A DNA stretch of 64,000 nucleotides from Candidatus Effluviviaceae Genus I sp. (GTDB taxonomy: Bacteria; Joyebacterota; Joyebacteria; Joyebacterales; Joyebacteraceae): contig VGIX01000001.1 of the NCBI GenBank assembly GCA_016867725.1, positions 99,575-163,574 of the forward strand. Reading direction: 5' to 3'. Below, one piece after another: positions 23,564-62,788 of the stretch (its first letter is position 1; every line of letters starts with the position of its first letter). The notes under the pieces are model-generated. The model had not been told where the DNA came from and searched no databases. It was given only the letters and a program-made list of their open reading frames with translations. The position numbers and the translations under genes are program-made.

Positions 23564-23593
23564 AGTGAAGACCCGTCGGCGCGGAGGCCCGCG

Positions 23594-40684: not shown

Positions 40685-42120
40685 GCGGCTTCGCCTCCTC
40701 CCGCGGCCGTGGCCGTGCTCGCTTCCACCGCTCCTGGACCGCCGGGCGCCAGCCGAAGCGCCTCCGCCGCAGCATAGAAGAGCCAGAGCACGGAGTTCGT
40801 GCTCACGTTGGCGGCGGGTATGAGCTGCGCCTGCGCGAAGAAGACCACCGCGCCGATCAGCAGGGCTGTTCCGACACGCGCACGGTCGGGCGAGCGCGAC
40901 CGGTCGTTTCTCAGGGCGTGCACGTTGCGGATGAACCGGACAAGCAGCGCAACGTAGAGCGAAAGGCCGACCAGCCCCAGCGCGACGGCCCTCTGGAGGA
41001 AGTAGTTCTCCGCCGTGTAGGCGACCGGGTCAGCCCGCGTGATCCGGTACTCCCCCTGCATGGCGCTCCGGATCCCCCCCCAACCGACCCCGAGAAGCGG
41101 GTGGTCGCGGATGATCATGAACGACTGCTCATAGGTCACCAGACGAGCGGCCGTCGTGGCCGCGTCCCCCTTGAGCATACGCTCGAGCTTGGCCACGAGC
41201 GGCGGGGGTGCGAGCACCGCAAGGGCGATCACGGCAGCGACAAGCGCTGCCACCAGCCGCCGGGAGCGGAGCGCCAGCACGGCGGCGACGAACGATGCCA
41301 GGACGCCCACGACCCCGCTGGCGGAGTACGTGAGGAGGTTCGCGGCCACGGCGAGCCCTGCGAGCGCGAGGAGAACTCCTCGCCTCGCCGCGCTCCGCGC
41401 GCCGGCGGCGAGGCCCAGCGAGAGCCCGAGAGCGATGGACATGTAGTGGGAGAAGTGAAGCGGGTGGTCCATCGTCGAGAAGACGCGCAGGAACGGCGTT
41501 CCCCGCAGGTCGTACGCCGTGGCCCGGTATCCCCAGGCCGGCACGGGCGCCCCGTACGGAAGGGAAGCCTGGTAGAAGCCGTAGAGCGCCGGCACCACGA
41601 GACTCGCCGCGACGGCGGCGAGCGCGCGCAGAGCATCCTCGGGGGTCCTGATGATCGACGCCGCGAGGGCGAAGACCACGAGCTGCATGACGATGCGGTA
41701 GACGGAGGCCACGCCCCAGAACACGTTGGAGGCGGTGTAGAGACCTACGAGGGAGAGCAGCATGATGGCGCCGATGACCCGAAGCGACGCGCTCTCTCTG
41801 AGAGGCCGCGCGATCCCATCCCGTCGGATCACGGCCGCGAGGAGGATGATCGCCAGGAAGTCGATCGGGTACGCCGACACCGTGCCCGCGATACTGAACG
41901 ACAGAGGCTCCTTGAGCGGCAGCGTGAGCAGAACGAGGTACCACATGCCGCGAATCGCCCCGAAGCGCCAGACGAGGAACCCCGCGACCGCCGCGCCTCC
42001 CACGACGAGCGACACGGCGAACGGCGCGAACGCGACGCCGAGCGCGATCGCCGCGATGGCGACCGCGAACACGGCCCATGGGCATCCGAGGGCCCGCCGT
42101 GCGACGCCCCGCTCGATCAC
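40681..42120 (-). CDS. O-antigen ligase / Wzy-type polysaccharide polymerase family membrane protein
   Basis: About 10-12 TM helices with a large periplasmic loop (Wzy_C-like); GTG start 42118..42120 overlaps the wzx stop (GTGA). Confidence 0.7.
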   Translation of the reverse strand: MIERGVARRALGCPWAVFAVAIAAIALGVAFAPFAVSLVVGGAAVAGFLVWRFGAIRGMWYLVLLTLPLKEPLSFSIAGTVSAYPIDFLAIILLAAVIRRDGIARPLRESASLRVIGAIMLLSLVGLYTASNVFWGVASVYRIVMQLVVFALAASIIRTPEDALRALAAVAASLVVPALYGFYQASLPYGAPVPAWGYRATAYDLRGTPFLRVFSTMDHPLHFSHYMSIALGLSLGLAAGARSAARRGVLLALAGLAVAANLLTYSASGVVGVLASFVAAVLALRSRRLVAALVAAVIALAVLAPPPLVAKLERMLKGDAATTAARLVTYEQSFMIIRDHPLLGVGWGGIRSAMQGEYRITRADPVAYTAENYFLQRAVALGLVGLSLYVALLVRFIRNVHALRNDRSRSPDRARVGTALLIGAVVFFAQAQLIPAANVSTNSVLWLFYAAAEALRLAPGGPGAVEASTATAAGGGEAA

Positions 42121-44862: not shown

Positions 44863-46464
44863 CTACTTCGTGGCCTGGTTGATGAGAAGGTACGCGGTCG
44901 CCAGCGAGCCGGCGAAGGACGCGATGTCCCTCGCGGTCCTCCACCAGTCGGACTCCGGCCGCTCGGGGACCCAGACCTCGTCGCCGGGCAGGATCGGGCC
45001 GGCTTCCCGCGCGGTCAGACGCTGCCCCGTGGCCGCCCGCACGACGCGAGTTCCGGTCCTCTTCGCCTGGGACGCGAACCCGCCCGCCCGTGCCACGTAG
45101 TACCGAGCGTCCTTCCCCGGCGCGAAGGCAACGTGCCCGGGGCGCGTGACGCGCCCGCTCACGGTCACGGTCGTGATCGCTCTCGGCACGAGGATCCGAT
45201 CGCCGTCCCTCAGGAGGGGGTCGTTGGACGCGCCGGCGACGAGCAGGCCCTCGAAGTCGGCCACGACCGTTCCCTCGAGCTCGGTCGACTTCGCCTTGAA
45301 GTAGGCGTACTCGGTCTCCGTCATGTCGCCGGCGGTCATCGTCTTGAGCCGCTCGAGCTCGGCGTCCATGTCCGCCGCCCCCTGACGGCGCACGAGTCTC
45401 GCGTTGCGCAGGGATGCCGCCGCCGTCGGCCCGCCGGCCCGGGCAAGAACGTCGGACAGGCGGTCGATCCCCTCGTTGATGCCATACACGCCGGGGTGGA
45501 CGAGTTCGCCCTCCGCGGAGACGAAACGAACGACCCGCCACTCGCTCCGCTGCTGCACGTAGACCTGATCGCCGTCCACGAGCGGGACCGCGGCGCCGTC
45601 CGAGCCTGTGAGGTCCACGACGCGGGCACCCGTCTTCACGTCGTCCCTGAACGTCCTGAGCTCGACGGTCTCAGTCACCGCGCCTCGGACGAAGCCTCCT
45701 GCCAGGGCGATGAGCGACCCGACGGTCTCTCCGTCGGTCAGCTCGTACCGCCCCGGTCGGGCAACGCCCCCATAGGCGTGAACGAACAGGGTGGCGAAGG
45801 GCACGAAGATGACATCGCCGTCCAGGACCGGCGGGTTTGACTTGATGTCACCGGTGTTCCTGTATCTCGCGAGGTCGGCTCGTGCGGTGGAACCGTCCCG
45901 ACGGGTGATGACGATGTTGCGGTCGCTCCCGCCGCTCAGCAGGCCGCCGGCCTTCCCAACAAGCTCGCTCGTGAGATCGAGGGCCGTTGCGGAGTACTCC
46001 CCCGGCGCCGCAACGGCCCCGAGGACGTTGACCCACATGGTCCTGAGCCCGACAAGCGACACGCTCACGTCCATGCCGTGGTAGAGCTTCCCCAGACGAG
46101 CCTCGACGTCGGCCTTGAGCGCCGCGAGCGTCCGTCCCGCCGCGGGAATGGGAGCGACCCCCGAGAGGATCAGATCTCCCTCCGGGGTGATCGTCTCGCG
46201 CCAACTCAGGACGGTTCGTCCCCAGAGCGCGATGGAGATACCGTCGCCCGGCCCGACGATGTAGGTGTCGGGATCGACCGGTCCGCGGAGCGCCGGCGGC
46301 TCCTTCAGCGGAGAGGCCGCCGAGGCTGCGGGCGAGATGCCTGCGGCGCTCGCGCCCTGCGCGGCAGCCAGGCCGAGAGCCGCGGCATCCCTGCTGCCGT
46401 CCACGCCGTGTCCTGCCGACGCGGCAAGCGCGATCGTGAGGACCGCGACTGCGATCACGTGCAT
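44863..46464 (-). CDS. wza: Polysaccharide export protein (Wza/OPX family with SLBB domains)
   Basis: Signal peptide; Poly_export motif (YIVGPGD); repeated SLBB-like beta domains. Confidence 0.7.
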   Translation of the reverse strand: MHVIAVAVLTIALAASAGHGVDGSRDAAALGLAAAQGASAAGISPAASAASPLKEPPALRGPVDPDTYIVGPGDGISIALWGRTVLSWRETITPEGDLILSGVAPIPAAGRTLAALKADVEARLGKLYHGMDVSVSLVGLRTMWVNVLGAVAAPGEYSATALDLTSELVGKAGGLLSGGSDRNIVITRRDGSTARADLARYRNTGDIKSNPPVLDGDVIFVPFATLFVHAYGGVARPGRYELTDGETVGSLIALAGGFVRGAVTETVELRTFRDDVKTGARVVDLTGSDGAAVPLVDGDQVYVQQRSEWRVVRFVSAEGELVHPGVYGINEGIDRLSDVLARAGGPTAAASLRNARLVRRQGAADMDAELERLKTMTAGDMTETEYAYFKAKSTELEGTVVADFEGLLVAGASNDPLLRDGDRILVPRAITTVTVSGRVTRPGHVAFAPGKDARYYVARAGGFASQAKRTGTRVVRAATGQRLTAREAGPILPGDEVWVPERPESDWWRTARDIASFAGSLATAYLLINQATK

Positions 46465-46594
46465 CTCGCGCAGGTTCAGGGTCTTGCCTCCCTCGCGCAC
46501 GGGCGCCCCTCGGGGCGACCGAGTATGGTGGACGCGTCTCGCCGCGGTCAAGGTCGTTCGCCGCGCGGATCCGCTTCGCCGCGGTCCGCCGTTC

Positions 46595-47119
46595 CTAGCC
46601 GTCCTTCGCCGTCCAGTCGTACGGCACGCTCGGGTCGTGCGGGTCCACCCGGTACTCGTCCGGCGAGCCGTAGTCGTACGGCTCCGTCGGGCAGTTCACG
46701 AGGAACCCGGGCTCCGCGCCCACGGCCTTCATCCCGTGCAGCACGCCGGGCGGGATCGTGATGAGGAGCGGGTTCGTCTCGCCCATGAAGAACTCGTTGA
46801 CCTCGCCGCGCGTGGGCGAGTCGGGACGGTCGTCGTACAGCACGACCTTCACCATGCCCTTCACGATGACGAAGTAGTCGGTCTGCACCTTGTGGTAGTG
46901 CCACCCCTTCACGACGCCCGGATAGACGACCGACAGGTACACCTGCCCGAACTTCCTGAAGATCGCGTCGTCCGCCCTCAGCATCTCCATGAGGTACCCG
47001 CGCTCGTCCGGGATCGGCCGGAGCGCCTTGTGCTCCACGCCGTGGATGAGCCGCTTCGCCCTGACGCCGCTGGGGAGCCCCCGCGGCCCCGAGCCCGCGC
47101 CCCGGTTGTCGGCACCCAT
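46595..47119 (-). CDS. Cupin-fold sugar-nucleotide epimerase/isomerase (RmlC/WxcM/FdtA-like)
   Basis: 174 aa; KGWHYHKVQTDYFVIVKG cupin motif. Confidence 0.65.
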   Translation of the reverse strand: MGADNRGAGSGPRGLPSGVRAKRLIHGVEHKALRPIPDERGYLMEMLRADDAIFRKFGQVYLSVVYPGVVKGWHYHKVQTDYFVIVKGMVKVVLYDDRPDSPTRGEVNEFFMGETNPLLITIPPGVLHGMKAVGAEPGFLVNCPTEPYDYGSPDEYRVDPHDPSVPYDWTAKDG

Positions 47120-48459: not shown

Positions 48460-49275
48460 TCACTCCATCCCTAGAGGCGCGTCGGCGGTCCGCCGTGCGG
48501 CCGCGACCTCGATGGGGCCGACCGCGTCCGACGGCGCGCCGACGTATACGCTCACGTCGTCGCGCCCGGCGCGCGCCAGCGCCTCCGCGGCCGCCCCGAG
48601 CGCCAGGTCGGGCGTGTTGTTCCTGCGCGAGAGGTGCGCGAGCACGAGCGCGGAGAGCGGGCCGCCGGCCATCCGCTCGATCTCGCGCGACGCGGCGCCG
48701 TTCGACAGGTGCCCGGTGTCGGCGAGGATGCGCTGCTTCAGATGCCAGGGATACGGCCCGTCGAGCAGCATCCGCTCGTCGTGGTTGAACTCGAGCACGG
48801 CGCAGTCCGCGACCATGAGGTGCTCGCGGACCTCGTCCCCGACCGTTCCCAGGTCCGTCGCGACCGTCACGCGGCACGCGCCGTCGGAGACGGTGAACCC
48901 GACGGGCTCGGCGGCGTCGTGGCTCACGCCGAAGGCCGTGACCGAGAGGTCGCCGACGTCGAACGCGGCGCCCGGCGACACGGGCACTGCGCGGCACCCG
49001 CCGGTCATGAAGCGACCGATCTCGTCCAGCGTGCCTGGCGTGGCGTAGACGGGAATGTCCCCGTGCGCCCCGAAGGCCGGAAGCCCGCTCACGTGGTCGG
49101 AGTGACCGTGCGTGACGAGGACCCCGCTGACGGCGCGCGGCTCGGCGCCCGCGGCACGGACGGCCCGGGTCAGCCGGCGCGCCGAGATCCCGGCGTCCAC
49201 GAGGACGCGCGTGGAGCCCGAGTGCACGAGAAGCGAATTGCCGGAACTGCCGCTCGCCAGGAGCGTGATGCGCAT
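48460..49275 (-). CDS. MBL-fold metallo-hydrolase (YycJ/PhnP-like)
   Basis: MRITLLASGSSGNS..., HxHxDH motif THGHSDHVSG; start at the internal Met 49273..49275. Confidence 0.8.
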   Translation of the reverse strand: MRITLLASGSSGNSLLVHSGSTRVLVDAGISARRLTRAVRAAGAEPRAVSGVLVTHGHSDHVSGLPAFGAHGDIPVYATPGTLDEIGRFMTGGCRAVPVSPGAAFDVGDLSVTAFGVSHDAAEPVGFTVSDGACRVTVATDLGTVGDEVREHLMVADCAVLEFNHDERMLLDGPYPWHLKQRILADTGHLSNGAASREIERMAGGPLSALVLAHLSRRNNTPDLALGAAAEALARAGRDDVSVYVGAPSDAVGPIEVAAARRTADAPLGME

Positions 49276-49321
49276 CTGCGTCCCCGCGTGAGGTCCGCGG
49301 AATCCCGCGTGTCGGGGGGCG

Positions 49322-49980: not shown

Positions 49981-49999
49981 GCGGCGCAAGGGAGCGACG

Positions 50000-52252
50000 A
50001 TGCGTGGACTCATGGCCCGCGTGCTGGCCGTGACGGAGCGATTCGAAGACGCGCGCGTGAGCCTGGGAGCGTGGCTGCTCGGGCTCGTGTCGATCGTCGC
50101 GGTCCGGCACTTCCTCGAGCAGCTCGCGGGCGGCCGGAAGATCCTCTACTTCCTCGCCTACTTCCTGCACTACCCGCTGGCCTACGTCGCGCCGCTCCTT
50201 GGGCTCACGATCGTGCTCGCGGCGTTCGCGCGAGAGAGGGCCGACCGGGTCATCAGGCTCATGCTCTTCGCGTGGCTCCTCACGCTCCTGCCGCCGCTCC
50301 TCGACATGCTCGTCTCGCGCGGCGCGCCGGCGCCGGAGATCATCGGCTATCTCATCCCGAGGACGGGCACGCTGGGCCAGGCGTTCCTGAACCTCTGGAA
50401 CCCGTTGTACAAGGGCTTCCAGGGCCCGACCGCCGGCATCCGGATCGAGGCGGCCATCGGATGCGTCCTGGCCGCCTGCTACGTCCACCTGAAGACGAGG
50501 AGCGCGCTCAGGGCCGCCGCGGCGTTCGTCGCGATCTACGTCACGATGTTCTTCTTCTTCGCGCTGCCGGCGCTCGTCCTGGCCGTCGTTCGGATCTTCG
50601 GGGCGGACGTCGACGGCGTGCAGCGGCTCTTCTTCACGTCCGGGGCCGTGCACCGCGCCTACGCGGGGGCTCAGCCGTACGCGCTCTCGGACCTCTCGAG
50701 CGCGCTCGTGGACCTCTTCGTGACCGTCCCGCTCCTCGCCGTCTGGTGCCGGATGGCGGCTCCTGAGAGGTTCAGGTCGGTGGCGCGCCTGTTCGACCCC
50801 TTCGCCGCGGCCGTCCACGCGGCGCTCGCCGCGCTGGGCATCGCGCTTGCCCGGGGCGTCGTCGTGAGAGCGTTCGGGACGCCGGCCGTCACGCACCCGT
50901 TCGACCCGCTCGCGCTCGCAGGCATCGTCGTCGCCGCGGCGCTCATGCAGCCCGCGGCCGCCGCGATGGCGGCCGCCCACGCCGACGGCGACCGCCCCGC
51001 GGGTCAGCGCGAGGCGACCGCGGCCGACGGCGCCATCCTCTTCACCCTCGCCGCGCTCTTCGCGCTGAGCGTGAGCTACGTCGCCCTCACGTACGTGCTC
51101 GGGGTCGGCGCCGCGTGCGCCCTGCGCCACGCGCGGCCGTTCCGCCTGAGCCGCATCGTGCCGGCGTCCGCTCTCCTTGCGGGCGGGCTCGCCGTCTTCC
51201 TCGTCCAGCTCGGCTACGCGTCGTACGCCGGGGCGTCCGCCACGCTGTGGATGCCCCGAAGCGTCGTCGCCGCGGTGTTCGCCGCGGGCGCGCTCGCCGC
51301 GGCCGCCGCGGCCCTCCTGGGCCGCCGCCGCGCGGTGCCCGCAGGGCTCCGCGCGGCCGCCGTCGTCGGCGTGGCGGCCGCGGCCGTGTGGGCCTCGGGC
51401 GACCATCCCCGCCTCCGCGACGAGCTGCGGGGCACCGACTTCCCGAGGGTGGTGGCGGCGCGGAGGAGCGCCCCGGAGGCCGGATCGCCGGCCACCGCCG
51501 CGATGAGCGAGGGGCTTTCCCTCATGCAGCGCGGCGACATCGCGGGCTCGGCCGCCGCGTTCAGGCGCGCGATCGAGGCCGACCCCGAGTACGCCCCGGC
51601 CTACCTGGCGGCGGGCGGGGCGTACGTGAGGCTCGGGCGGGCCACCGAGGCGGCTCGCTCGTTCAGGAGAGCGCTCGCGCTCGATCCCGGGAACACGCGG
51701 GCGCGCATCGGCATCGCGCAGGCGCACATGCTGCACGCGAGGGCGGACAGCGCGATCGCCGTCCTCGACCGCGCCATCGAGCTGGACCCGCGCAGCGCCG
51801 AGGCCGCGTACACGCTCGCGTGCGTCTACCTCGAGACGCGCGACCTGGAGAAGGAGAGGCGCGCGCTCGAGAGGACGGTCGCCGCGGACCCCGCGCACAG
51901 CCTCGCGCAGGACCGGCTCGGCGACATCCGCATGGGCGAGAGGAGGTACGCCGAGGCCGTTGAGGCCTACAAGGCGGCCATCCTCGGGCAGATGCCCGTG
52001 CAGCACGCGCACTCGAAGCTCGCGCGCGCCTACCACGCGCTCGGCGAGCTCGACAGGGCCGTCGACGCGATGCGCAAGGAGATCCTCGCCTCGCCGAGGA
52101 TGGCGTCGCCGCACGCGGTGCTGGCCGGGCTCCTCGCGGAGCAGGGCAACACGGACGAGGCGCGCCGCGAGTACGAGACGGCGCTCTCGCTCACGAACGA
52201 CGGCGACCTCCGGGCGCTCTTCCAGAGGGAACTCGACAAGCTCCGGCGGTAG
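50000..52252 (+). CDS. Polytopic membrane protein with C-terminal TPR-repeat domain (PMT/TMTC-like architecture, inference)
   Basis: RBS AAGGGAG then ATG at 50000; about 12 TM helices over about 480 aa, then about 250 aa of TPR repeats (AAFRRAIEADPEYAPAYLAAGGAY...). Confidence 0.7.
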   Translation: MRGLMARVLAVTERFEDARVSLGAWLLGLVSIVAVRHFLEQLAGGRKILYFLAYFLHYPLAYVAPLLGLTIVLAAFARERADRVIRLMLFAWLLTLLPPLLDMLVSRGAPAPEIIGYLIPRTGTLGQAFLNLWNPLYKGFQGPTAGIRIEAAIGCVLAACYVHLKTRSALRAAAAFVAIYVTMFFFFALPALVLAVVRIFGADVDGVQRLFFTSGAVHRAYAGAQPYALSDLSSALVDLFVTVPLLAVWCRMAAPERFRSVARLFDPFAAAVHAALAALGIALARGVVVRAFGTPAVTHPFDPLALAGIVVAAALMQPAAAAMAAAHADGDRPAGQREATAADGAILFTLAALFALSVSYVALTYVLGVGAACALRHARPFRLSRIVPASALLAGGLAVFLVQLGYASYAGASATLWMPRSVVAAVFAAGALAAAAAALLGRRRAVPAGLRAAAVVGVAAAAVWASGDHPRLRDELRGTDFPRVVAARRSAPEAGSPATAAMSEGLSLMQRGDIAGSAAAFRRAIEADPEYAPAYLAAGGAYVRLGRATEAARSFRRALALDPGNTRARIGIAQAHMLHARADSAIAVLDRAIELDPRSAEAAYTLACVYLETRDLEKERRALERTVAADPAHSLAQDRLGDIRMGERRYAEAVEAYKAAILGQMPVQHAHSKLARAYHALGELDRAVDAMRKEILASPRMASPHAVLAGLLAEQGNTDEARREYETALSLTNDGDLRALFQRELDKLRR

Positions 52253-52314: not shown

Positions 52315-54642
52315 CTACCTGATGAGCACGAGCTTCGCCGTGGACTCACCGTCCGCGCAGGCGACCCTGGCGAAGTACACCCCGGTCGCCACCTCAAGCC
52401 CCCGCTCGTCGCGACCGTCCCACACGGACTCGTGGGCGCCGGCCGGCCTGATCTCGCCGTCGAGCAGCGTCCGCACGAGCCGCCCGGACACGTCGTACAC
52501 CGCCAGGCGGACCTGCGTCTCCATAGGCAGGACGTAACGGACGCCGGTCCCCGCGCTGAAGGGGTTCGGATGCCCCGAGAGCGCGATCCTGCTCCGCTCC
52601 GTCCCCTCCCCCGGCACGCCGGCGGACGGCGCGTCGCGCGAGATCTGCACGTCGTCCACGTACCAGCCGTCCCGCGTGATCCAGCTGTCGGAGGTCAGGG
52701 CGAAGCGCACCTTGAACTGGCTCGTGGCGTACGCGGTGACGTCGAACGAGACCTCCGTCCACGCCGACTGCGTTCCGCTGTACGAGGCCACCTGCGTCCA
52801 GCTCGACCCGTTGTTCGCGCTCACGGAGACGCGGCAGAGGTCGTAGCCCGACTCCGTGTCGTAGCGGTGCCAGAAGGACAGGGTCGCGCTCGACGCGCCG
52901 CCCAGGTCCACGGGGCTGCCGAGCGTCATGACGATGTTGGCGTTGTTGCCGTAGTTGCCGCTCGGGCTGTCGGTCATGCTGGACGACGGGCTGTGGAACT
53001 GGCCGGTCGTGAGCCCCCACGCGCCGGTCCACCGCGACAGGCCCGACTCGAGGTCGTCGTAGAAGACGGGACTCGGGAGCAGGAAGCTCTCCGTCACGGT
53101 CGTCCCGTAGACGACCTGGACACCCGCCCGCGTGACCGTGGAGTAGCCCGCCTTCGTCACCCGCATGTCGTGCGCGCCGACGGGGACGTGGTTGATCTCG
53201 TAGTAGCCCGTCACGGGATCCGAGACCGCGGAGTATCCCCCGATGTCCGTGACCGTCACGGACGCCGAGAGAGGGTTCATGGTCTGATCGAACACGTAGC
53301 CGGCGATCGTTCCGCGGGGCGGCGGCTCGAGCGCGAAGTTGACCACGACGAACGTGTCGAGGTTCGCGACGACGTTGTACACGGTCTGGCTCTGGTACTC
53401 CGGCGCGCTCGCCGTCACCGTGTAGGTGCCCTGCTGGACCATCCTGTGGTAGTCCCCGACCGCCGGGTCGGTATACACGTCCTTCCCGATCTGCGGGATG
53501 CTGATCGTGGCGTAGAGCGGCTCGCCCGTCCCGGCGTCGGTCACGATGCCCCTGATGCCCTTGCCCGATTTCCGCGCCTGGTACAGCATCGCCGGGATGT
53601 TCGCGTTCACGATGCCGTCGATGTTCGAGGCCGGCGGGTTCTTCGAGGTCGAGACCTCGATGGTCGTCGCGATCTCGCCGCGCTGGTCGTAGCACCAGTC
53701 CTGGCAGGTGCCCTTGGCGACGTACCAGTCGGCCCCGTTCGTCACCGGGAGCCCGCTCCGCGACCCGTACCCGTTCGACAGCGTGATGATCATCGGCTCG
53801 TCGGGGGTCGGGTCGTACGAGTAGTCCCAGAGGTAGTTGACGTACACGGCGCCCGAGTGGAACTGGAGCGACGTCACGGGGTTCATGCCGACGCAGAAGT
53901 CCCTCAGGGCCTGCGTCTCCGGGGCGGAGAACGCCGAGCCGGCGTTGCTCCCGTCCGGGCAGAGGTAGTTGCGGTTCAGGTCTGTGCCTTGCGCGTTGTA
54001 CCGCGAGCCGTTCGTGTGGCCGTCCGGGTTGATCATCGGGATGACCCAGAACTCCCGGTTGTTCACGAGCCAGGTCACCTGCGGGTTCGTCCCGTGGTTC
54101 TCGAGCAGGTACTTCGCCGCGTAGTAGCAGGTCTCGACGGAGATGGTCTCGTCGCCGTGATGGGCCCCCACCCAGACGATCTCCGGCTCGGCCTCCTCGA
54201 TCCCCGGGTTGTCCGTGATCTTGAGGGCCCAGAGCTCGCGGCCCTGCACCGATCGCCCGATCGAGATGAGCTCGGTGATGGACGGATAGGCCGCGTGCCA
54301 CGCGGCGAGGTCGGCCGTGATCGCGCTGTAGTTGTGGTACACGCCGCGGTACGGGGCGCTCTGCGCGAGGAACGCGTCGCGCATGTTCTCGACCACGACG
54401 CGGGGCCGGAAGCCGTTCGCCCACAGCGCCTCGATCTCACCGGGGACGGCGGCGATCTCGGCGACCCCGTCCCGCACGTTCATGATGTCCATCCCAAGCT
54501 CGTTGAGCCTGTGGATGTCCGCGCGCGAGTAGACGTCCACCTCGACGACCGCGGCGTCGTCCCTCGGATACGCCGCCGCGCCGGTCGCGAACACCAGCGC
54601 GGTCATGAGCACAGCAAGGCATGTCGCGCTCCGGAGCACCAT
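52315..54642 (-). CDS. M14-family zinc carboxypeptidase with T9SS C-terminal sorting domain
   Basis: Signal peptide; HxxE zinc motif (GAHHGDE), NPDG, NRNY; C-terminus ...VRLAVYDVSGRLVRTLLDG...HESVWDGRDERG...GVYFARV...TAKLVLIR matches the Por-secretion tail pattern. Confidence 0.8.
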   Translation of the reverse strand: MVLRSATCLAVLMTALVFATGAAAYPRDDAAVVEVDVYSRADIHRLNELGMDIMNVRDGVAEIAAVPGEIEALWANGFRPRVVVENMRDAFLAQSAPYRGVYHNYSAITADLAAWHAAYPSITELISIGRSVQGRELWALKITDNPGIEEAEPEIVWVGAHHGDETISVETCYYAAKYLLENHGTNPQVTWLVNNREFWVIPMINPDGHTNGSRYNAQGTDLNRNYLCPDGSNAGSAFSAPETQALRDFCVGMNPVTSLQFHSGAVYVNYLWDYSYDPTPDEPMIITLSNGYGSRSGLPVTNGADWYVAKGTCQDWCYDQRGEIATTIEVSTSKNPPASNIDGIVNANIPAMLYQARKSGKGIRGIVTDAGTGEPLYATISIPQIGKDVYTDPAVGDYHRMVQQGTYTVTASAPEYQSQTVYNVVANLDTFVVVNFALEPPPRGTIAGYVFDQTMNPLSASVTVTDIGGYSAVSDPVTGYYEINHVPVGAHDMRVTKAGYSTVTRAGVQVVYGTTVTESFLLPSPVFYDDLESGLSRWTGAWGLTTGQFHSPSSSMTDSPSGNYGNNANIVMTLGSPVDLGGASSATLSFWHRYDTESGYDLCRVSVSANNGSSWTQVASYSGTQSAWTEVSFDVTAYATSQFKVRFALTSDSWITRDGWYVDDVQISRDAPSAGVPGEGTERSRIALSGHPNPFSAGTGVRYVLPMETQVRLAVYDVSGRLVRTLLDGEIRPAGAHESVWDGRDERGLEVATGVYFARVACADGESTAKLVLIR

Positions 54643-54719
54643 GGACCTCCCTCAAGGACCGGCCCCGGACGGCAGCGCCCGGAGGCACCGTGCCCCCGGG
54701 CGCCCGCCGCCGCTCTCGT

Positions 54720-56726
54720 CTACTTCAGAAGCGCCATCTTCGTCGTGCGCGTCTCGCCGGCCCCCGAGAGCCGCGCGAAGTACACGCCGGACGCCAGCGC
54801 GCGACCGCCGTCGTCCGTCCCGTCCCACGCGATCGCGTGCGGCCCGGCGGCAAGATCACCGTCCACGAGCGTGCGCACCGCGCGGCCGTTCACGTTGTGC
54901 ACGGCCAGCGTCACGCGGCCCGCGTCGGCCGGCACGGTGAAGGCCAGCGTCGTCGTCGGGTTGAACGGGTTCGGGAAGTTCTGCCTGAGCGCGAGCGTCG
55001 TGACCGGCGGCGTCTCGGGCACGCCGGTCGGGATCGGCCCGAACCAGTGCAGGATGCGGTTCATGAGCGTCCGCTGGTTGTTCGGGTCGGCCGCGGCCGT
55101 CTTCACGCACTCGAACGGGAACGACGTGAACACGACGCGGTGGCCGCGGCCCGCGGCCTTCAGCGCCTTGATGCCGTTCGCGGCCGTGAAGATGCCGTCG
55201 GCGGACGCGTTGAGTTCAACGCTCTCGCTCCCCGACACCGAGAACGGCCCGCCGGTGATCCCGAGGGACATCCCGTCGGAGATCGGATCCCCAGCCACGC
55301 CCGTCATAATGAAGCCGCCCGTGTTGTTCGACCACGAGGCGATGTGCAGGTAGTCGCTGGTGAAGGTCGTCGCCCCGGTGCGGCTGCTCAGATACCCCAT
55401 GCTCGAGAGGAACAGGTTCCCGCCGCCGTCCAGGTACGCGGCCATCGCGGCTTCGTTTGCCGCGTTGATGGCCGACCCGTCGGTGTTGGCGGTCGTCCAG
55501 AAGACCGCCCAGAAGTCGTTCAGGAGGAGCTGCAGCGGTCTCCCCTTCGCGCTCGCGTCCCACACGAGCGGCGTGTACCCGTTGTCGAGGACGGCCTGCC
55601 TGAGGTGGCTCTCGTACGAGGCACCTCCGTCGTCGTCCACGATGAGGATGGACGGGAGGTCCACGAACACGCCGAACGACGCGCTGGCCGTCTTCAAAGC
55701 GTTGGTTCTACTCGTCGCCGTCAGCGTCGCGGTCCCGAGCCCCCGCACGGTGCCGATGAAGTCCGAGATCTCCACGGAGAACCGCTTCTCCTCGCCTGCC
55801 TCGAAGTGGTAGGTCTGCGCCGTGATCCAGCACACGTCGTCCGGATCACACGCGATCGCGAGCCACTCGTATGGGCCGACCTCAGGCGGGAAGACCGACG
55901 AGAGGCTGACCCTGATCGAGTCGGCCACGGTGCCGGTGTTCTTGATCTTCGCGAAGAACTTCCTGCTCTCGAGGTATCCCATCTCCGCGGCGTACGATTC
56001 GGGCGACATGCCCACGCCGTACGGCTCGCGCATGCACTGCGCGTTCACGATGAGCCGCGGCGACTCGACCTTCTCGATGAACGCCGCAATCCACACGTTC
56101 GCGTGGTTCCACGACGAACTCAGGACAAGGCTACGGTAGACGGTCACCGAGTCGCCGACGGCCGAGAGCGTCACGTTCTCCGTCGGCAGCATCTTGCGCA
56201 CCGTCCATGGGTAGTCCGTCCCGATGTTCTCGTACACGACGAACTGGGCGCGGAGCGGACCGAGAGTGTGAGGTTCGACGGCCTTGAACGTGGCCTCGAT
56301 CCACGTCGTCCCGGGGTCGTCCACCACGAGGCCCTTCGTCCTCATGACGATCGGCGTCGAAGCTGCCTTTCGGGCCGCGTAAATGGGTTCGTAGGTATCG
56401 CGCACGGTCGAACCCGCTCCGATGACCTCGACCACCGAGTCCCAGTCGACCTCGGGGATGCCGCCCACCCCGTAGTAGGTGGCGCGCGCCTGCGTCTCGG
56501 TCGTGGAGTAGGCGTCGTTCAGGTGGTAGTAGAGGACGACGAGGTTGTCCTTGCCGTAGTCGTTCTGCATTGCCTGGAGCGCCGCACGGGCGTTCGGGCA
56601 GTACCCTCACCACGTGGCCCCGAACAGCTCCGCGAGGACCGCCCGCTCCGCCGGCACGGCCGTCACCGCGCCGCCGAGCAGCAGGGCCGCTGCGAGTCCG
56701 ATCATCGCCGAACGCTTCATCGTCAT
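54720..56726 (-). CDS. Predicted selenoprotein: secreted thioredoxin-fold protein with a UxxC motif (Sec40 encoded by TGA 56607..56609), central domain of unknown function, and a T9SS C-terminal sorting domain
   Basis: ATG 56724..56726 with RBS GGAAGGGAGA. Signal peptide MTMKRSAMIGLAAALLLGGAVTA, then ...AVLAELFGATW-U-GYCPNARAALQAMQNDYGKDNLVVLYYH... read straight through the TGA. The downstream paralog aligns as ...VVLAELLTTRP-C-ANCPNAEAGLHTVLGEYGAGNLCVIAYH..., with a Cys at the TGA position. The C-terminus QNFPNPFNPTTTLAF...LAVHNVNGRAVRTLVDG...AIAWDGTDDGGRALASGVYFARL...TTKMALLK is a T9SS sorting domain. The ORF track called only 54720..56570. Confidence 0.8.
56560..56609 (-). other. In-frame UGA (Sec) codon 56607..56609 and GC-rich region downstream in the mRNA that may hold the SECIS
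   Basis: mRNA: UGA GGGUACUGCCC GAACGCC CGUGC GGCG CUCCAGGC; short GC stems within 40 nt of the UGA. Confidence 0.4.
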
Positions 56727-56813
56727 GGTCTCCCTTCCTGGCGATGCGTTGGCCTTCTCTCGGGGTTCCGGCGCCGTGTGCGTGGGGTGTCGGCATCCCC
56801 GCTCTCGTGCCTG

Positions 56814-57872
56814 TTATCGTCCTCCAAGTCGCGCAGCCTGCAGGGCTTCCTTGGTCAGGTCGTCCTGCACGAACGCGATCACACTCAGATTGGCCGTGTT
56901 CCACGACGGACTCACGGCGAACGACCGCGTCACGACCGCGGAGTCGCCCACGGACGCAACGCTCAGCGGCTCGTCGTCGAGGAGGTCGCGCGCGACGAAG
57001 TCGTACACGCTCGACGCCACGACGACGTGGTCCTCGATGACGACGACCCTGAGCACGGCCTCGGTCGTCGTGAGCGCCTCGCGGACCTTCACGGTCACCG
57101 TCACGCTGCCCGACGCCGCGCTCCCCGCCATCCGCATCGAGACCGGCGAGCCGAAGGTCCTCCGGTGGTCGATCTCCATGCGGTAGGCCGCGGCCGCGGT
57201 GGACGGCGACCCGGCGCCCTGGACGATGCGCGCGACGTCCCCGTCGAAGATCACCGCGGGCCATGTGTTCCACGAAGGCCCCATGTACCAGTCGATCCTC
57301 GCATTCGTCTCGGGCGTCCCGAGCGGGTCGGCCGGCGGGAGAAGATCGTGATACGCGATCACGCACAGGTTGCCCGCGCCGTACTCGCCGAGCACCGTGT
57401 GGAGGCCGGCCTCGGCGTTCGGGCAGTTGGCGCACGGGCGCGTCGTGAGAAGCTCCGCCAGCACGACGCGCGGGACGAGCCCGCCCGCCGGCCCGACCGC
57501 GAACGAGCACGCGGCCGGCGTCGGGTCAAGGTCGCCGTCGTTGTCCAGGGCGGCGACCTCGAACAGGTAGTCTCCCTCGGCGACCGCCGGCAGCACGAGC
57601 TCTGTGGCCGTCGTCTCCCCGGTCAGCGTGTCGTTGAGGGACCAGACGTACTTCACCACCGCCCCGTCGGGGTCGCTGCCGCTCCATGCGATGAGCGCGT
57701 CCGCGCCCGCCACGACCGCGCCAGGCGCCGGGCACGCCTCCATGACCGTCTCCGGGAGGAGGTTCACCTCGGCCGGGGAGTGGAACCAGTCGCAGCCGGC
57801 GGCAAGCGCCAGCGCCGCGAGCGCGGCCGCGCCCGCCCGACCCCACCACCGTCCGGTCCGCGTCCTCGCCAC
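56814..57872 (-). CDS. Lipoprotein with thioredoxin-fold CxxC domain; Cys-containing paralog of the selenoprotein N-terminal domain
   Basis: GTG 57870..57872 with RBS GGAGGGGG. Lipobox LALAAGC; ...RPCANCPNAEAG... The C-terminal region ...SPSWNTANLSVIAFVQDD... parallels ...SSSWNHANVWIAAFIEKV... in the selenoprotein. The Arg-rich N-terminal extension of the ORF-track call is rejected. Confidence 0.7.
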   Translation of the reverse strand: MARTRTGRWWGRAGAAALAALALAAGCDWFHSPAEVNLLPETVMEACPAPGAVVAGADALIAWSGSDPDGAVVKYVWSLNDTLTGETTATELVLPAVAEGDYLFEVAALDNDGDLDPTPAACSFAVGPAGGLVPRVVLAELLTTRPCANCPNAEAGLHTVLGEYGAGNLCVIAYHDLLPPADPLGTPETNARIDWYMGPSWNTWPAVIFDGDVARIVQGAGSPSTAAAAYRMEIDHRRTFGSPVSMRMAGSAASGSVTVTVKVREALTTTEAVLRVVVIEDHVVVASSVYDFVARDLLDDEPLSVASVGDSAVVTRSFAVSPSWNTANLSVIAFVQDDLTKEALQAARLGGR

Positions 57873-57880
57873 GCCCCCTC

Positions 57881-59356
57881 CTAGAAGTACGCGCTCAGCC
57901 GAACGCGCACGCCCTCGAACTCCGGCTCGAACCAGCAGACGCCGCCGGCGCACTTCTTCCCGCCACGCTGCGTGCCCGCGCCGAACAGCACCTCGACGTC
58001 GTCGGAGAGCCGCTTCTTGAGCTCCGCCGAGAACCACGCCTCGCGCTCCTCGAAGTCGGCCGTGCTCCGCTCGAACACCGCGGACACGGTGAGGTCGGCG
58101 CGCGCGTACCATGTGAGCGACCCCATGTAGTCGGTGTAGGCGGAGCCGGTGACGTCGTCGGTCGAGCCGATCTCGATGCCGAGCTCGGCCCTCTGCTCGG
58201 CCGGAAGCTCCACGTCGAACTCCGCCGCGCCGATCAGATGCTCCGTGAACTTCCCCAGCAGATACTCGCGGGACCACGACCCCGCCACGGCCCCGCTCAC
58301 CGACGCGGCGAGCGAATGCGAGAGTTCGCCGAAGATCTCCCAGTGCGACAGGTTCCCGGAGTGCGTCCTCGCCTCCGACGCGCCCGCCGTGAGCGAGAGC
58401 GCGTCGCCGACCGGCAGCGTGCCCTCGCCGAGGAACCCGCGCTCGTCATCGAGGCTGATCTCGTACGTGGCCCGGTTCATGAGGGTCCACGGGTGCTCGC
58501 GCACGCACGTCGGCGGGTTGATCAGGTGGTGCGAGAAGAGGTCATAGTCCTTGAACTCGCCGAAGAGCGTGAGCAGCCCGAGGTCGAACGTCCCCGAGAG
58601 GTACAGAGCACGGCCCTCGCCCGCCTCCGCGCCCGTGACCGGGTTCTCGACGTCGCGCCTGGCGTACTCGCCGGACAGGGCGACGCGGCCGAGCCAGAGG
58701 TCCACGGCGCCGTCGAGCACGACGTCCTCACGGCGGGCCTGCGCGGGCGGAAGAACGAGGTTCGCGTCGGCGTCCTCCCACGAGCGCTCCACCGCGCGAG
58801 CGGAGAGCCGCACCCAGTCCCAGGGCGCGGCGGCAGCCTCGAGCCCCCGCACCGTGTGCTCGCGGGTGCGGACCCTCGAGAGCGGCTCGCTCACGACGCC
58901 GGAAACCGCCGTGAACGCGAGCGGCCCCGTCCCATAGCCGATGAGGACGCCATCGAGCGCCGTGTCGTGCTCGAGGTCGGTCTGCTCGTAGCTCCGGAGA
59001 GCGAGCCCCTTCCCGAAGGTGCAGAAGAAGCTGCCCGCGCGGGCCGACAGCGACTCGTTGCGGAACTCGGCGTACCGGTGCCTGACCTCCGAGCGGGGGA
59101 TGTCCTTCTGCGCCGGACTGTAGCCGGGGTCCGAGAGCTGGTACGCGCGATACGTCGCGCCGAGGAGGAACCGTCCGACCTCGATGCCGAACTCAACGCG
59201 CCCGTCGAACACCGAGCCGTCCAGATCGACGTTGTGGAGGTACTCGCCGTCGACCGATCCCCTCACGGTGACGTCGCCCGCGTCGAACGACGACGCGGGG
59301 AGCGCCCAGGCGAGCGAGGCTCCGAGGGCTGCGAGGACGGTCGCGATCCGCTTCAC
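57881..59356 (-). CDS. Outer-membrane beta-barrel protein (porin-like, unknown family) with C-terminal CxxxxC
   Basis: Signal peptide MKRIATVLAALGASLAWA; alternating amphipathic beta-strand pattern; C-terminal ...GGKKCAGGVCWFEPEFEGVRVRLSAYF with a terminal aromatic residue typical of OMPs. Confidence 0.65.
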   Translation of the reverse strand: MKRIATVLAALGASLAWALPASSFDAGDVTVRGSVDGEYLHNVDLDGSVFDGRVEFGIEVGRFLLGATYRAYQLSDPGYSPAQKDIPRSEVRHRYAEFRNESLSARAGSFFCTFGKGLALRSYEQTDLEHDTALDGVLIGYGTGPLAFTAVSGVVSEPLSRVRTREHTVRGLEAAAAPWDWVRLSARAVERSWEDADANLVLPPAQARREDVVLDGAVDLWLGRVALSGEYARRDVENPVTGAEAGEGRALYLSGTFDLGLLTLFGEFKDYDLFSHHLINPPTCVREHPWTLMNRATYEISLDDERGFLGEGTLPVGDALSLTAGASEARTHSGNLSHWEIFGELSHSLAASVSGAVAGSWSREYLLGKFTEHLIGAAEFDVELPAEQRAELGIEIGSTDDVTGSAYTDYMGSLTWYARADLTVSAVFERSTADFEEREAWFSAELKKRLSDDVEVLFGAGTQRGGKKCAGGVCWFEPEFEGVRVRLSAYF

Positions 59357-59359
59357 GCG

Positions 59360-59896
59360 CTACTCCTGCTTGGTCCGCTCGGGGCAGCCCGCCGGGAGGA
59401 GCGAGCGCACCGCCGCGTCGAGCTCGGCGTGGTTCTGCGGCCGGTATCCGGCCGTCGCGTAGACGATCTCCCCCTTCGTGTTGATGAGGACTGTGCGGGG
59501 GACCGCCGACACGTGGAACTTCCGGGCCACGTCCTGCGACGTGTCGAGCACGACGTCGAACGTGTGCCCCTTGGAGGCGATGAGCGCCCCGACGCGCGAG
59601 GCCGACTTCGGGCCGTCGATGGACACCGCGACGACGCGCAGGCCGCAGTCGGCATACTTGTCGAGCACCTGCTGCAGGTCCGGGAAGGCCTTGATGCAGG
59701 GCTTGCACCAGGTCGCCCAGAAGTCGACGACGACCGGCCCGCCCTTCAGAAGCTCCGACAGCGTGAGGGACTTGCCCTCGACGTTCGGCAGCGTGAAGTC
59801 GGGCGCCTTGGTCGGCGTCGCGCCGAAGGCGCACGTCGCCGCCACGAGCAACACGGCGGCCCAGCCGCTTGTGCCTACACCTCGCCTCTTGGTCAT
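59360..59896 (-). CDS. TlpA/ResA-like thiol:disulfide oxidoreductase (thioredoxin fold, membrane-anchored)
   Basis: 178 aa; signal/anchor; FWATWCKPC active site; 3-nt gap to the downstream OMP gene. Confidence 0.85.
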   Translation of the reverse strand: MTKRRGVGTSGWAAVLLVAATCAFGATPTKAPDFTLPNVEGKSLTLSELLKGGPVVVDFWATWCKPCIKAFPDLQQVLDKYADCGLRVVAVSIDGPKSASRVGALIASKGHTFDVVLDTSQDVARKFHVSAVPRTVLINTKGEIVYATAGYRPQNHAELDAAVRSLLPAGCPERTKQE

Positions 59897-59922
59897 GAGT
59901 TCCCCCTGACCTTTCCTAACTG

Positions 59923-59951
59923 ATTATACCACCATGAATAGCGTTGGTCAA
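59923..59951 (-). promoter_or_regulatory. Near-consensus sigma70 promoter for the tlpA, OMP, CxxC-lipoprotein and selenoprotein operon
   Basis: Minus strand, in an AT-rich island: -35 TTGACC (59946..59951), 17-nt spacer, -10 TATAAT (59923..59928), about 20-nt leader with RBS AGGGGGA before ATG 59896. Confidence 0.55.
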
Positions 59952-61372: not shown

Positions 61373-61978
61373 CTACACCTCCTGCGGCGCGCCCTCGATG
61401 AGCTTCACGACCTCCTCACGGAGCGCATTCCCGATGGCCGGGGTGAACCCCACGTGCTTCGCCGCGATCCTCCCGTCCGGGCCGATCACGAACGTCATGG
61501 GGATCGAGCTGACCTTGTAGGACGCCGCGACGGGCTTGTCTCCGACGAGCACAGGATACGAGACCTTGTTGGCCGCGGCGAAGGGCCTCAGCACGTCGGC
61601 TCCACCGTCGTCGAGTCCGATGCCGACGACCACGAGCCCCCGGTCCCTGAACTCCTCGTACAGCCCGACGAGGAACGGGATCTCCTGGCGACAGGGCGGA
61701 CACCACGTCGCCCACAGGTCCAGCACCACGACCTTGCCCTGGAAGTCGGACAGCGAGACATCCCGCCCGTCGACGTCCTTGAGCGTGAAGGGCGGCGGCG
61801 TCATCCCGACGTCAACGCCGACGGCCGCCGAGCCCGGAACAGCGGACCCGCCGCTCGCCTCGCCTTGCGTTGCTGCATCCGCGCCGGCCGGGGGCGTCTC
61901 CTGCCTTGAGCATCCCGCCGCGGCGAGGACCGCCACCGTGAGCATCCCGACCGCAAGCCACCTCAAGAACTGCGCCAT
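61373..61978 (-). CDS. TlpA-family thiol:disulfide interchange lipoprotein
   Basis: Lipobox LAAAGC; LWATWCPPC active site; 201 aa. Confidence 0.85.
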   Translation of the reverse strand: MAQFLRWLAVGMLTVAVLAAAGCSRQETPPAGADAATQGEASGGSAVPGSAAVGVDVGMTPPPFTLKDVDGRDVSLSDFQGKVVVLDLWATWCPPCRQEIPFLVGLYEEFRDRGLVVVGIGLDDGGADVLRPFAAANKVSYPVLVGDKPVAASYKVSSIPMTFVIGPDGRIAAKHVGFTPAIGNALREEVVKLIEGAPQEV

Positions 61979-62038
61979 GTCACTCCCCCTTCTTTGCTGT
62001 TGCGCCGAGCCCGCCGGCCTCGCAGCCGGCCCTTGCCG

Positions 62039-62371
62039 TCAACCCGCGATCGCGTTGATGCGCTTCTGGATGGTCTCCTTCGGGCCGGCACCGACCATCC
62101 TGTCGACCTCCGCCCCACCCTTGAAGAAGATGAGTGTCGGGATGCCCCGCACGCCGAACCGCTGCGCGAGCCCCGGGTTGTCGTCGACGTTGACCTTTAC
62201 GACCTTCGCCTTGCCCTGGTTCCCCGCCGCGATCTCCTCGAGCACGGGCCCCACCATCCGGCACGGTCCGCACCACGGGGCCCAGAAGTCCGCGACGACC
62301 GGGACCGCCGACGTCGCGACCTCGGCGTCGAACGTCGCCTCGCTCACATCCACGGTCTTCGCTGATCCCAT
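62039..62371 (-). CDS. trxA: Thioredoxin
   Basis: 110 aa; FWAPWCGPC; RBS AAGGGGG; start at the internal Met 62369..62371. The Arg-rich extension of the ORF-track call is rejected. Confidence 0.9.
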   Translation of the reverse strand: MGSAKTVDVSEATFDAEVATSAVPVVADFWAPWCGPCRMVGPVLEEIAAGNQGKAKVVKVNVDDNPGLAQRFGVRGIPTLIFFKGGAEVDRMVGAGPKETIQKRINAIAG

Positions 62372-62373
62372 GT

Positions 62374-62745
62374 TCACACCCCCTTCGCCTTGCGAGCGCC
62401 TCCGAGCGCGGCCGCGACGATCGCGGCCGCCGGACCTTCGTTCAGCCGATAGCACACGAGATGGCCGCGTCGCTCCGCCGAGATGAGCCCCGCGTACCGC
62501 AGCCTCGTCAGGTGCTGTGACACGGACGGCTGCGGAATGCCCAGGAGCTCCTCCATGCGCTTGACGCACAGCTCTCCGTCGCACAGGAGGGAGACGATCC
62601 GAACGCGCACCGGATGCGCCAGGGCCCGGAAGACGGCCGCGGCGTCATCGAGCTCCGCCGCGTTGCCGGGTCCCTCCTCGCCGACCTGTCCGAACCTCTT
62701 CGCCCCGGACCGCACCAGTACGGCTCCTCCCATGCAGGAGAACAT
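62374..62745 (-). CDS. ArsR/SmtB-family transcriptional regulator
   Basis: HPVRVRIVSLL...ELCV...QPSVSQHLTRLRYAGLI winged HTH. The start may instead be Met5 (62733), since the promoter leaves only a very short leader to 62745. Confidence 0.8.
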   Translation of the reverse strand: MFSCMGGAVLVRSGAKRFGQVGEEGPGNAAELDDAAAVFRALAHPVRVRIVSLLCDGELCVKRMEELLGIPQPSVSQHLTRLRYAGLISAERRGHLVCYRLNEGPAAAIVAAALGGARKAKGV

Positions 62746-62759
62746 TCAATAGTGCTGAT

Positions 62760-62788
62760 ATTATACTCATCGAATGCTGAGCTGTCAA
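62760..62788 (-). promoter_or_regulatory. Consensus sigma70 promoter for arsR-trxA
   Basis: Minus strand: -35 TTGACA (62783..62788), exact 17-nt spacer, -10 TATAAT (62760..62765), in a 54-nt AT-rich intergenic island. Confidence 0.6.

Follow-up and report, generated by a model that had tools for sequence, protein, structure and literature searches.

A conserved cassette of a TlpA-like reductase, a DUF6029 outer-membrane barrel and Omp28/HBP35-like thioredoxin-fold proteins as a candidate thiol relay across the outer membrane

Results

A five-gene redox locus built around a DUF6029 barrel

We analysed a 64,000-nucleotide (nt) stretch of contig VGIX01000001.1 (hereafter the window, to whose positions all coordinates refer unless another locus is named) and found five genes arranged head to tail on its minus strand. 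They encode, in order, a TlpA-like thiol:disulfide reductase, an outer-membrane protein (OMP) of the DUF6029 family, an HBP35/Omp28-like lipoprotein, an open reading frame (ORF) with an in-frame TGA whose product is tagged for the type IX secretion system (T9SS), and an M14 peptidase (Table 1), with intergenic gaps of 3, 8, 87 and 77 nt. The TlpA-like, DUF6029 and Omp28-like genes form a cassette that recurs far beyond this genome, and we weigh below whether its products could carry thiol reducing power to the cell surface. The window has a G+C content of about 70%, and its DUF6029 protein is identical to FJY74_00625 from a metagenome-assembled genome (MAG) of Candidatus Eisenbacteria. An initial annotation made from the letters of the DNA had proposed these genes, their cysteine motifs and the in-frame TGA, and every coordinate proved accurate when the sequence was re-read, as did the first three gaps and the near-consensus promoter in front of the TlpA-like gene. 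This promoter scored 11 of 12 consensus matches in a promoter scan (59951..59923) and is one of three sigma70-like sites between 52 and 63 kb, where shuffled sequences would yield 0.5; all three lie on the minus strand, each closely 5' of a gene start. Terminator prediction returned none on the minus strand of the same 52-63 kb region.

Table 1. Features of the cassette and of the peptidase gene that follows it (window positions)
Feature	Coordinates	Strand	Basis or remark
Sigma70-like promoter, TTGACC-17 nt-TATAAT	59923..59951	-	TG directly before the -10 hexamer; ~26 nt 5' of the TlpA start codon
TlpA-like thiol:disulfide reductase, 178 aa, active site W-C-K-P-C, N-terminal signal peptide or anchor	59360..59896	-	Pfam, NCBIfam
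DUF6029 (PF19494) outer-membrane beta-barrel, 491 aa, GTG start, ~24 predicted strands	57881..59356	-	Pfam; AlphaFold2 model
C-x4-C hairpin, Cys469-Cys474 (C-A-G-G-V-C)	57935..57952	-	Alignments; DSSP
HBP35/Omp28-like lipoprotein (gene 3), 352 aa, GTG start	56814..57872	-	Pfam, AlphaFold2, Foldseek
Lipobox LAAGC, lipid-modified Cys27	57792..57794	-	Sequence
CxxC motif C147-A-N-C150 of the lipoprotein	57423..57434	-	Sequence
T9SS-targeted predicted selenoprotein (gene 4), 668 codons	54720..56726	-	Translation; TIGR04183
In-frame TGA, codon 40, motif W-U-G-Y-C-P (U40-G-Y-C43)	56607..56609	-	Homolog comparison
SECIS-like hairpin, stem up to 7 bp, 5-nt loop CGUGC	56577..56595	-	Starts 11 nt after the UGA
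C-terminal T9SS type A sorting domain of gene 4	about 54723..54977	-	TIGR04183, 27.7 bits vs cut-off 23
M14 carboxypeptidase, 775 aa; CarboxypepD_reg, MAM-like and T9SS sorting domains	52315..54642	-	Pfam, TIGR04183

The product of the first gene matched Pfam AhpC-TSA (91 bits) and Redoxin (85 bits), and its WCKPC motif and hydrophobic N-terminus are those of a Redoxin/AhpC-TSA thioredoxin fold with an export signal. It fails at the equivalog level, with ResA as the best NCBIfam match at 96.5 bits against a cut-off of 170 and a score under the TlpA cut-off as well, and the protein represents a subfamily of its own that accompanies the cassette. Its N-terminus may be a cleavable signal peptide instead of an inner-membrane anchor. 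TlpA-family proteins are specific reductants that are themselves kept reduced by DsbD or CcdA.

The barrel of the second gene is a clear DUF6029 member (86.4 bits against a Pfam cut-off of 27), and this family comprises 1309 clusters at 50% identity. DSSP analysis of the AlphaFold2 model assigned strands 466-470 and 473-477 to the cysteine hairpin, which lies between the last two barrel strands and, by strand parity in the model, would form the last extracellular loop. Both cysteines are invariant in four DUF6029 alignments (A1, A3, A4 and A5), and the pair was recovered in 138 of the 146 listed DUF6029 representatives, the 8 exceptions being C-terminally truncated or frameshifted. The window protein conforms to the C-terminal signature of the family, G-G-x-x-C-x-G-G-x-C...F-x-G followed by a terminal aromatic strand. 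Thus, the barrel with a C-terminal cysteine pair described in the initial annotation is indeed present, but the pair is a signature of the whole family and not specific to this operon. The three best-conserved DUF6029 motifs are FGRGLxLRSxE...D..LDG, NPPxxxxEHxWxLxNR and the C-terminal hairpin GGKKCxGGxCxxEPEF, and strand parity would place all three on extracellular-side or lumen-facing loops. Neither a TonB box nor a plug domain was found in the barrel. Its structural neighbours are ushers, TonB-dependent receptors, OprC and also MtrB, generic matches of the kind expected of any large barrel.

Two paralogous Omp28/HBP35-like proteins follow the barrel

The lipoprotein consists of a PKD/Ig-like domain, a thioredoxin-like domain that holds the CxxC motif and a beta-sandwich, modelled by AlphaFold2 with a predicted local distance difference test score (pLDDT) of 91. 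It falls just short of the Pfam Omp28 threshold (PF11551; 33.5 bits against 34.9), is likewise just sub-threshold for DUF1223, and its profile matches PDB entry 2axo (DUF1223) with an E-value of 4e-10. The best structural match of the model in the PDB is HBP35 (5y1a; Foldseek E-value 1.9e-9, template modelling scores of 0.49/0.55, 252 aligned columns). The residues CDWF are conserved from the lipid-modified cysteine onward in the lipoprotein alignment (A2), and the protein, instead of residing in the periplasm, may have its anchor in the outer membrane or face the cell exterior.

Gene 4 has an N-terminal domain paralogous to the lipoprotein (32% identity over 207 residues, E-value 4e-22), with its UxxC aligned to the CxxC of the latter. 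Gene 4 encodes a signal peptide, an Omp28/HBP35-like domain, two middle domains and the T9SS sorting domain, and FlgD_ig was also matched. NCBIfam scores lie far under the cut-offs for both proteins: NF033782 gave 43.5 bits for gene 3 and 34.1 bits for gene 4 (cut-off 150), and NF045500 gave 42.1 and 44.7 bits (cut-off 200). The two proteins are therefore Omp28-related without being family members by threshold, and form a distinct, divergent branch. The middle ~350 residues of gene 4 had no match in Pfam or among PDB sequences; these two domains (residues ~230-580; window 54977-56000) are kept in a distant homolog at locus L099 (see below), and one of them holds a conserved 'ILIVDDDG...FWTTA...GGNLFLSS' segment.

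The TGA of gene 4 is almost certainly read as selenocysteine

Ahead of the TGA, and in frame with it, are a ribosome-binding site, a signal peptide and the motif RAVLAELFGATW, and the reading frame is conserved both before and after this codon. Among gene-4 homologs from MAGs and metagenomes (42-74% identity to the window protein), the same codon is TGA in 9 distinct sequences and TGC or TGT (Cys) in 2. U40-G-Y-C43 aligns to C147-A-N-C150 of the lipoprotein and to the CGYC of the Cys-form homologs, so that selenocysteine (Sec) takes the place of the first Cys in the redox motif. An alternative genetic code was considered and rejected: TGA terminates 16 of the 39 window genes, and the code is therefore the standard one. 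Where a thioredoxin fold bears UxxC, the motif is usually a catalytic redox site; the reductase/isomerase DsbC has CGYC at its active site. Elsewhere, tandem T9SS-tagged Omp28-like genes occur at loci L087 (1782-4653) and L091 (1337-1672), and the second L091 copy also opens with W-U-G-Y-C-P.

Downstream of the UGA, every Sec form has a hairpin that resembles a selenocysteine insertion sequence (SECIS), and its spacing and the GU in its loop fit the minimal E. coli SECIS. When the 9 Sec forms are folded to a consensus, the four upper pairs prove invariant; two basal pairs show compensatory changes in part of the set, and each of the two is broken in three sequences. The conserved peptide encoded by the stem, NARAAL, is a further constraint on its sequence. 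The codons GCC-CGT-GCG/GTG-GCG follow the UGA region in all Sec forms (the third codon is GTG in L001), and the rare Arg codon CGT within the hairpin, invariant in the Sec forms, is substituted in one Cys form (L084, which has GCG-CGC). The single-sequence folding energy of the region was no better than that of shuffles (z +1.6), and Rfam returned neither a SECIS nor any other RNA family, whether the whole window was searched at gathering thresholds or the UGA region at E-values up to 10, so that the argument for a SECIS is one from position and conservation only.

The initial annotation had already read the motif as UxxC, and the 9 TGA-bearing against 2 Cys-bearing homologs, the hairpin beginning 11 nt downstream and the standard code all back this reading; we hold it to be nearly certain that gene 4 encodes a selenoprotein. 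That the TGA is instead a true stop, leaving a pseudogene or a shorter protein starting from Met at 56570, is highly improbable: automated gene callers do split gene 4 at this codon, and the ordinary folding energy, the missing Rfam match and the lack of Sec machinery in the window agree with a stop, but TGA recurs at exactly this codon in the divergent homologs and alternates with Cys, the signal peptide and the RAVLAELFG motif ahead of it are conserved in frame, a protein without this upstream part would lose both its signal peptide and its active site, and the position and GU-containing loop of the hairpin fit the bacterial SECIS pattern.

The TlpA-DUF6029-Omp28 triad is inherited as a unit

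A survey with a profile of the Ignavibacteria/Bacteroidota-type DUF6029 subgroup (~20% identity to the window protein) yielded 80 loci from species-representative genomes, covering Ignavibacteriales, Melioribacteraceae (including a Melioribacter roseus MAG), Rhodothermaceae, Chitinophagaceae and others, and we scanned these loci with hidden Markov models built from the window proteins. A TlpA-like ORF lies directly 5' of DUF6029 on the same strand in 75 of the 75 Ignavibacteria/Bacteroidota loci with room for it, and an Omp28-like CxxC ORF, encoding a T9SS-tagged protein or a lipoprotein, lies directly 3' in 66 of 74. When all neighbours of the surveyed loci were clustered, the TlpA-like, DUF6029 and Omp28-like families alone held a fixed position and the rest varied. 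Of the 60 downstream Omp28-like proteins detected at these loci, 37 carry a T9SS sorting domain together with a signal peptide; most of the others are, by inspection, lipoproteins starting C-E-S-N-D, of which an automated lipobox pattern caught only three. By these signals the third component is consistently predicted to be directed to the outer membrane or the surface.

A TlpA-like gene lies directly 5' of DUF6029 in every other DUF6029 subfamily examined as well. A comparison confined to Eisenbacteria relatives of the window locus was uninformative because the whole neighbourhood is syntenic there. A second, paralogous Eisenbacteria DUF6029 clade (L003, L097 and L098) carries this triad among quite different neighbours (QueG, DNA ligase), often with gene overlaps of 1-4 nt. 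Its barrels score ~200-210 bits on the clade-1 profile, against 740-790 for clade-1 barrels, and in its lipoprotein PEGA-like domains precede the CxxC domain. A word-based homolog search from distant DUF6029 representatives returned this second Eisenbacteria clade only, and no other phyla. Gene order differs at a Cloacimonetes locus (L100) and in two further subfamilies, where the Omp28-like lipoprotein comes first, followed by TlpA and DUF6029.

The same-strand cluster at L099 (1722-11494) comprises genes for DsbD, an Omp28-like lipoprotein, TlpA, DUF6029 and a T9SS protein of 677 aa that shares the multi-domain architecture of window gene 4 and has lost the CxxC; the gene-4 architecture must therefore also be ancient, being shared with so distant a cassette. 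Further 3' in L099 lie a PhzF-family gene and another T9SS-tagged Omp28-like protein (CPYC).

The cassette is a unit of inheritance: the TlpA-barrel pair was never apart in any locus examined, and TlpA-like, DUF6029 and Omp28/HBP35-like genes adjoin in every subfamily examined. The triad occurs in Eisenbacteria (as two paralogous cassettes), Ignavibacteria/Bacteroidota, Cloacimonetes and other lineages, so that the co-occurrence on which the initial annotation had staked its proposal holds and the possibility that these families never co-occur elsewhere is excluded. Judged from sequence and models, the core would comprise a TlpA-type CxxC reductase, a 24-strand DUF6029 barrel and an HBP35/Omp28-like CxxC protein that takes either the lipoprotein or the T9SS route. 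The lineage of the window has both forms of the third part, the CANC lipoprotein and a T9SS-anchored UGYC paralog in which the attacking Cys is replaced by Sec.

The M14 peptidase and the wider window

The fifth gene does encode, as initially annotated, a T9SS-tagged carboxypeptidase (Peptidase_M14, 175 bits; TIGR04183, 24.6 bits against a cut-off of 23). It lies 3' of the cassette only in clade-1 Eisenbacteria loci, where the linkage is uninformative because the whole neighbourhood is syntenic, and is absent beside all other cassettes examined; with support confined to this one clade, we consider its membership in the system doubtful.

A second redox cluster lies 5' of the cassette on the minus strand (61373-62788). 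It is headed by a perfect TTGACA-17-TATAAT promoter (62788..62760) and encodes an ArsR-family regulator (62745..62374), a thioredoxin (~62365..62039; WCGPC) and a TlpA-like lipoprotein (61978..61373; WCPPC), followed by a YkuD L,D-transpeptidase and a deoxynucleoside kinase; the order of the cluster is kept in L001 and L002. A polysaccharide biosynthesis/export cluster at 35985-49321 includes a Wzx-like flippase, an SLBB-domain export protein (46695..44863), a UDP-glucose dehydrogenase and a 1220-aa fusion of one GT2 and two GT4 glycosyltransferase modules (41029..37367). The window also encodes a 1139-aa LptD (23593..20174) and a 492-aa ORF of coding-like composition that lacks a Pfam match (18163-19641) and adjoins a weak glutamate-cysteine ligase family 2 match (16936-18162). 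By third-position GC calls, 39 of 40 ORFs lie on the minus strand, the sole plus-strand gene (49997..52252) encoding a TPR-repeat membrane protein, and GC skew stays negative over nearly the entire window.

Discussion

A thiol relay to the cell surface as the best-supported explanation

The strict linkage described above makes it very probable that the three core proteins work together. What they do together is less certain, and a sustained thiol relay across the outer membrane is in our view the best-supported explanation, to which we assign a probability of roughly 40%. Cytoplasmic electrons would pass by way of DsbD or CcdA to periplasmic TlpA, and from there through or at the barrel, perhaps via its cysteine pair in the manner in which DsbD uses its membrane-embedded pair. 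Surface thioredoxin-like proteins would thereby stay reduced and could serve as reductases or isomerases for substrates at the surface or outside the cell. What we infer here is which way the electrons flow, that the barrel cysteines have a redox role, that the lipoprotein is exposed at the surface, and what the relay would act on. That DUF6029 would be an outer-membrane counterpart of DsbD, with its Cys-x4-Cys hairpin shuttling electrons from TlpA to surface oxidoreductases, is an analogy that we regard as possible but doubtful. In one lineage, that of L099, DsbD as the expected source of electrons is encoded within the cluster itself.

Several observations weigh against such a relay. A search of all fetched loci and of the window for DsbD or CcdA found it at L099 only (1 of about 100 loci). 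No sel gene and no tRNA-Sec gene occurs in the 64-kb window, which is without any tRNA gene. The cysteine pair is invariant and both putative partners are linked genetically, but strand parity would place the barrel hairpin on the extracellular side, where periplasmic TlpA could reach it only via the lumen. TlpA could also act a single time on T9SS cargo and lipoproteins while these pass through the periplasm, which would require no relay, and the absence of CxxC from the L099 homolog of gene 4 argues that this protein has a thiol-independent role as well. Moreover, the best-documented physiological role of HBP35 is hemin acquisition and not redox catalysis.

The strongest competitor to the relay is a role in biogenesis or docking, in which DUF6029 would be the dedicated partner of the Omp28-like protein (as an anchor, as the barrel of an LptD/LptE-like plug-and-barrel pair, or as a Slam-like translocon) and TlpA would keep CxxC/UxxC and the barrel cysteine pair reduced or rightly paired until export, with no later transfer. 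The linkage would be equally strict, a plug-less 24-strand barrel is big enough to hold or pass a protein domain, and both types of Omp28-like protein traverse the compartment of TlpA; the barrel hairpin, if extracellular, would be beyond the reach of TlpA after folding, and the conserved motifs that follow lipidation (CDWF in A2, CESND in Ignavibacteria) are as expected of a sorting or docking signal. A catalytic-type surface UxxC selenoprotein, however, needs continual re-reduction to be useful, the T9SS-tagged forms have their own export route and anchor, which would make a private barrel superfluous, and the DsbD co-encoded in L099 suggests a sustained flow of electrons, not a one-time event. 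On balance, we judge this role rather unlikely.

Uptake of a ligand is less probable still, and we consider it unlikely. Here the HBP35-like protein would capture a ligand by its Cys/Sec pair, the barrel would import it and TlpA would release or process it reductively; the ligand might be heme, a thiophilic metal, or a compound of sulfur or selenium bound through a mixed disulfide or selenosulfide. An analogy is offered by the role of TlpA towards ScoI and CoxB when copper centres are assembled. Growth under hemin scarcity requires HBP35, a hemin-binding protein (PMC2907840), and a 2026 preprint proposes an iron- or nutrient-uptake role for T9SS surface thioredoxin-like proteins of Muribaculaceae (PMC13404670). 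The barrel has ushers, TonB-dependent receptors and OprC as structural neighbours, all of them transporters or translocation pores, and its conserved motifs would lie on extracellular or lumen-facing loops, as uptake would have it. Against uptake stand the missing TonB box and plug domain and the lack of any transporter, heme-handling or metal-handling gene conserved around the cassettes; no heme motif was noticed at the CxxC sites, a systematic search for such motifs not having been made, and hemin binding by HBP35 is reportedly independent of its thioredoxin motif.

Finally, that DUF6029 is a generic or polysaccharide-export porin with unrelated redox genes as mere neighbours is strongly disfavoured: Wzi-like barrels near outer-membrane polysaccharide export (OPX) genes do resemble DUF6029 by HHpred (PMC9603273), and the window has a polysaccharide cluster with an OPX gene at 44863-46695, but TlpA adjoins DUF6029 in 75 of 75 loci and in all other subfamilies examined, often with a 1-4 nt overlap, and the OPX gene lies 11 kb away with unrelated genes on both strands between. 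We therefore rejected a polysaccharide-porin role here, as no polysaccharide-export gene is conserved nearby.

Novelty and significance

In full-text searches, DUF6029 was found only in PMC9603273 (article and preprint), nothing linked Omp28 proteins with selenoproteins, and no publication on the NF045500 or NF033782 families was retrieved; among the four papers naming both TlpA and Omp28, none concerned this topic by title or abstract. The 2026 preprint notes T9SS surface thioredoxin-like proteins resembling HBP35 and does not describe the cassette (PMC13404670). The parts thus belong to known families, and their assembly, a dedicated TlpA, a barrel with a cysteine pair and a surface thioredoxin or selenoprotein, is widespread and apparently undescribed. 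The remark in the initial annotation that it knew of no described system of this composition holds for this assembly, but not for its components: HBP35 was already known, and since NCBIfam holds NF045500, Sec in the Omp28 superfamily was already known to curators.

The cassette provides a first functional context for DUF6029 and for the Omp28-like family, and a rationale for the Sec variants. Envelope reducing pathways are thought to stop in the periplasm, and how surface HBP35-like proteins stay reduced is a question that the cassette makes directly testable; as MAGs placed in Melioribacter roseus and in families with cultured members, such as Ignavibacteriaceae and Rhodothermaceae, contain it, experiments may be feasible. 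If the relay is real, no earlier route is known by which thiol reducing power crosses an outer membrane, and these bacteria would have a continuous relay from cytoplasm to surface in Eisenbacteria, Ignavibacteria, Bacteroidota and Cloacimonetes.

Comparison with known systems

The closest characterised relative of the third component is HBP35 of Porphyromonas gingivalis, a T9SS surface protein for which CxxC-dependent thioredoxin activity in vitro and hemin binding are documented (PMC2907840). In HBP35 (5y1a), as in the lipoprotein, a beta-sandwich comes after the thioredoxin-like CxxC domain, and HBP35 shares the T9SS sorting domain with gene 4, gene 3 having a lipobox instead. It differs in that sequence similarity is marginal (E-value 0.007), in having Cys and not Sec, and in that no TlpA or DUF6029 partner has been reported for it; gene 4 has ~350 extra residues, and gene 3 is a lipoprotein with an added PKD-like domain. 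The NCBIfam models NF045500 ('Omp28-related selenoprotein', from its name presumably with Sec in the redox motif) and NF033782 ('Omp28 family outer membrane lipoprotein') belong to the same superfamily and are matched by genes 3 and 4, but the window proteins reach up to 45 bits against cut-offs of 150-200.

In architecture, the cassette resembles MtrCAB and LptDE, in which a large barrel (26 strands) has a periplasmic partner and a lipoprotein or surface partner encoded together with it, and MtrCAB moves electrons across the outer membrane. The window proteins, by contrast, are without hemes and without sequence relationship to these systems, and the predicted barrel has 24 strands, so that the resemblance is architectural only. 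In Streptococcus pneumoniae, the surface-exposed thioredoxin-fold lipoproteins Etrx1 and Etrx2 are reduced by CcdA, repair or reduce extracellular targets and have MsrAB2 as a target. They are alike in being surface thioredoxin-fold lipoproteins fed with electrons by a membrane transporter, and differ in that a single membrane leaves no outer-membrane step; also, no Msr gene is linked to the window cassette.

The pathways from DsbD or CcdA to TlpA, CcmG, ResA and DsbC share with the cassette a TlpA-type reductase dedicated to specific partners, and DsbD is co-encoded in L099; the U/CGYC motif of gene 4 matches the DsbC active site. In DsbD, electrons cross the membrane via a membrane-embedded cysteine pair. 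These pathways end in the periplasm, whereas the apparent acceptors of the cassette are outer-membrane or surface proteins with a beta-barrel as obligatory partner. We know of no pathway that carries thiol reducing power across the outer membrane, and if the barrel really transfers electrons, the cassette would constitute a new category of envelope thiol-redox pathway, beyond a variant of those already described.

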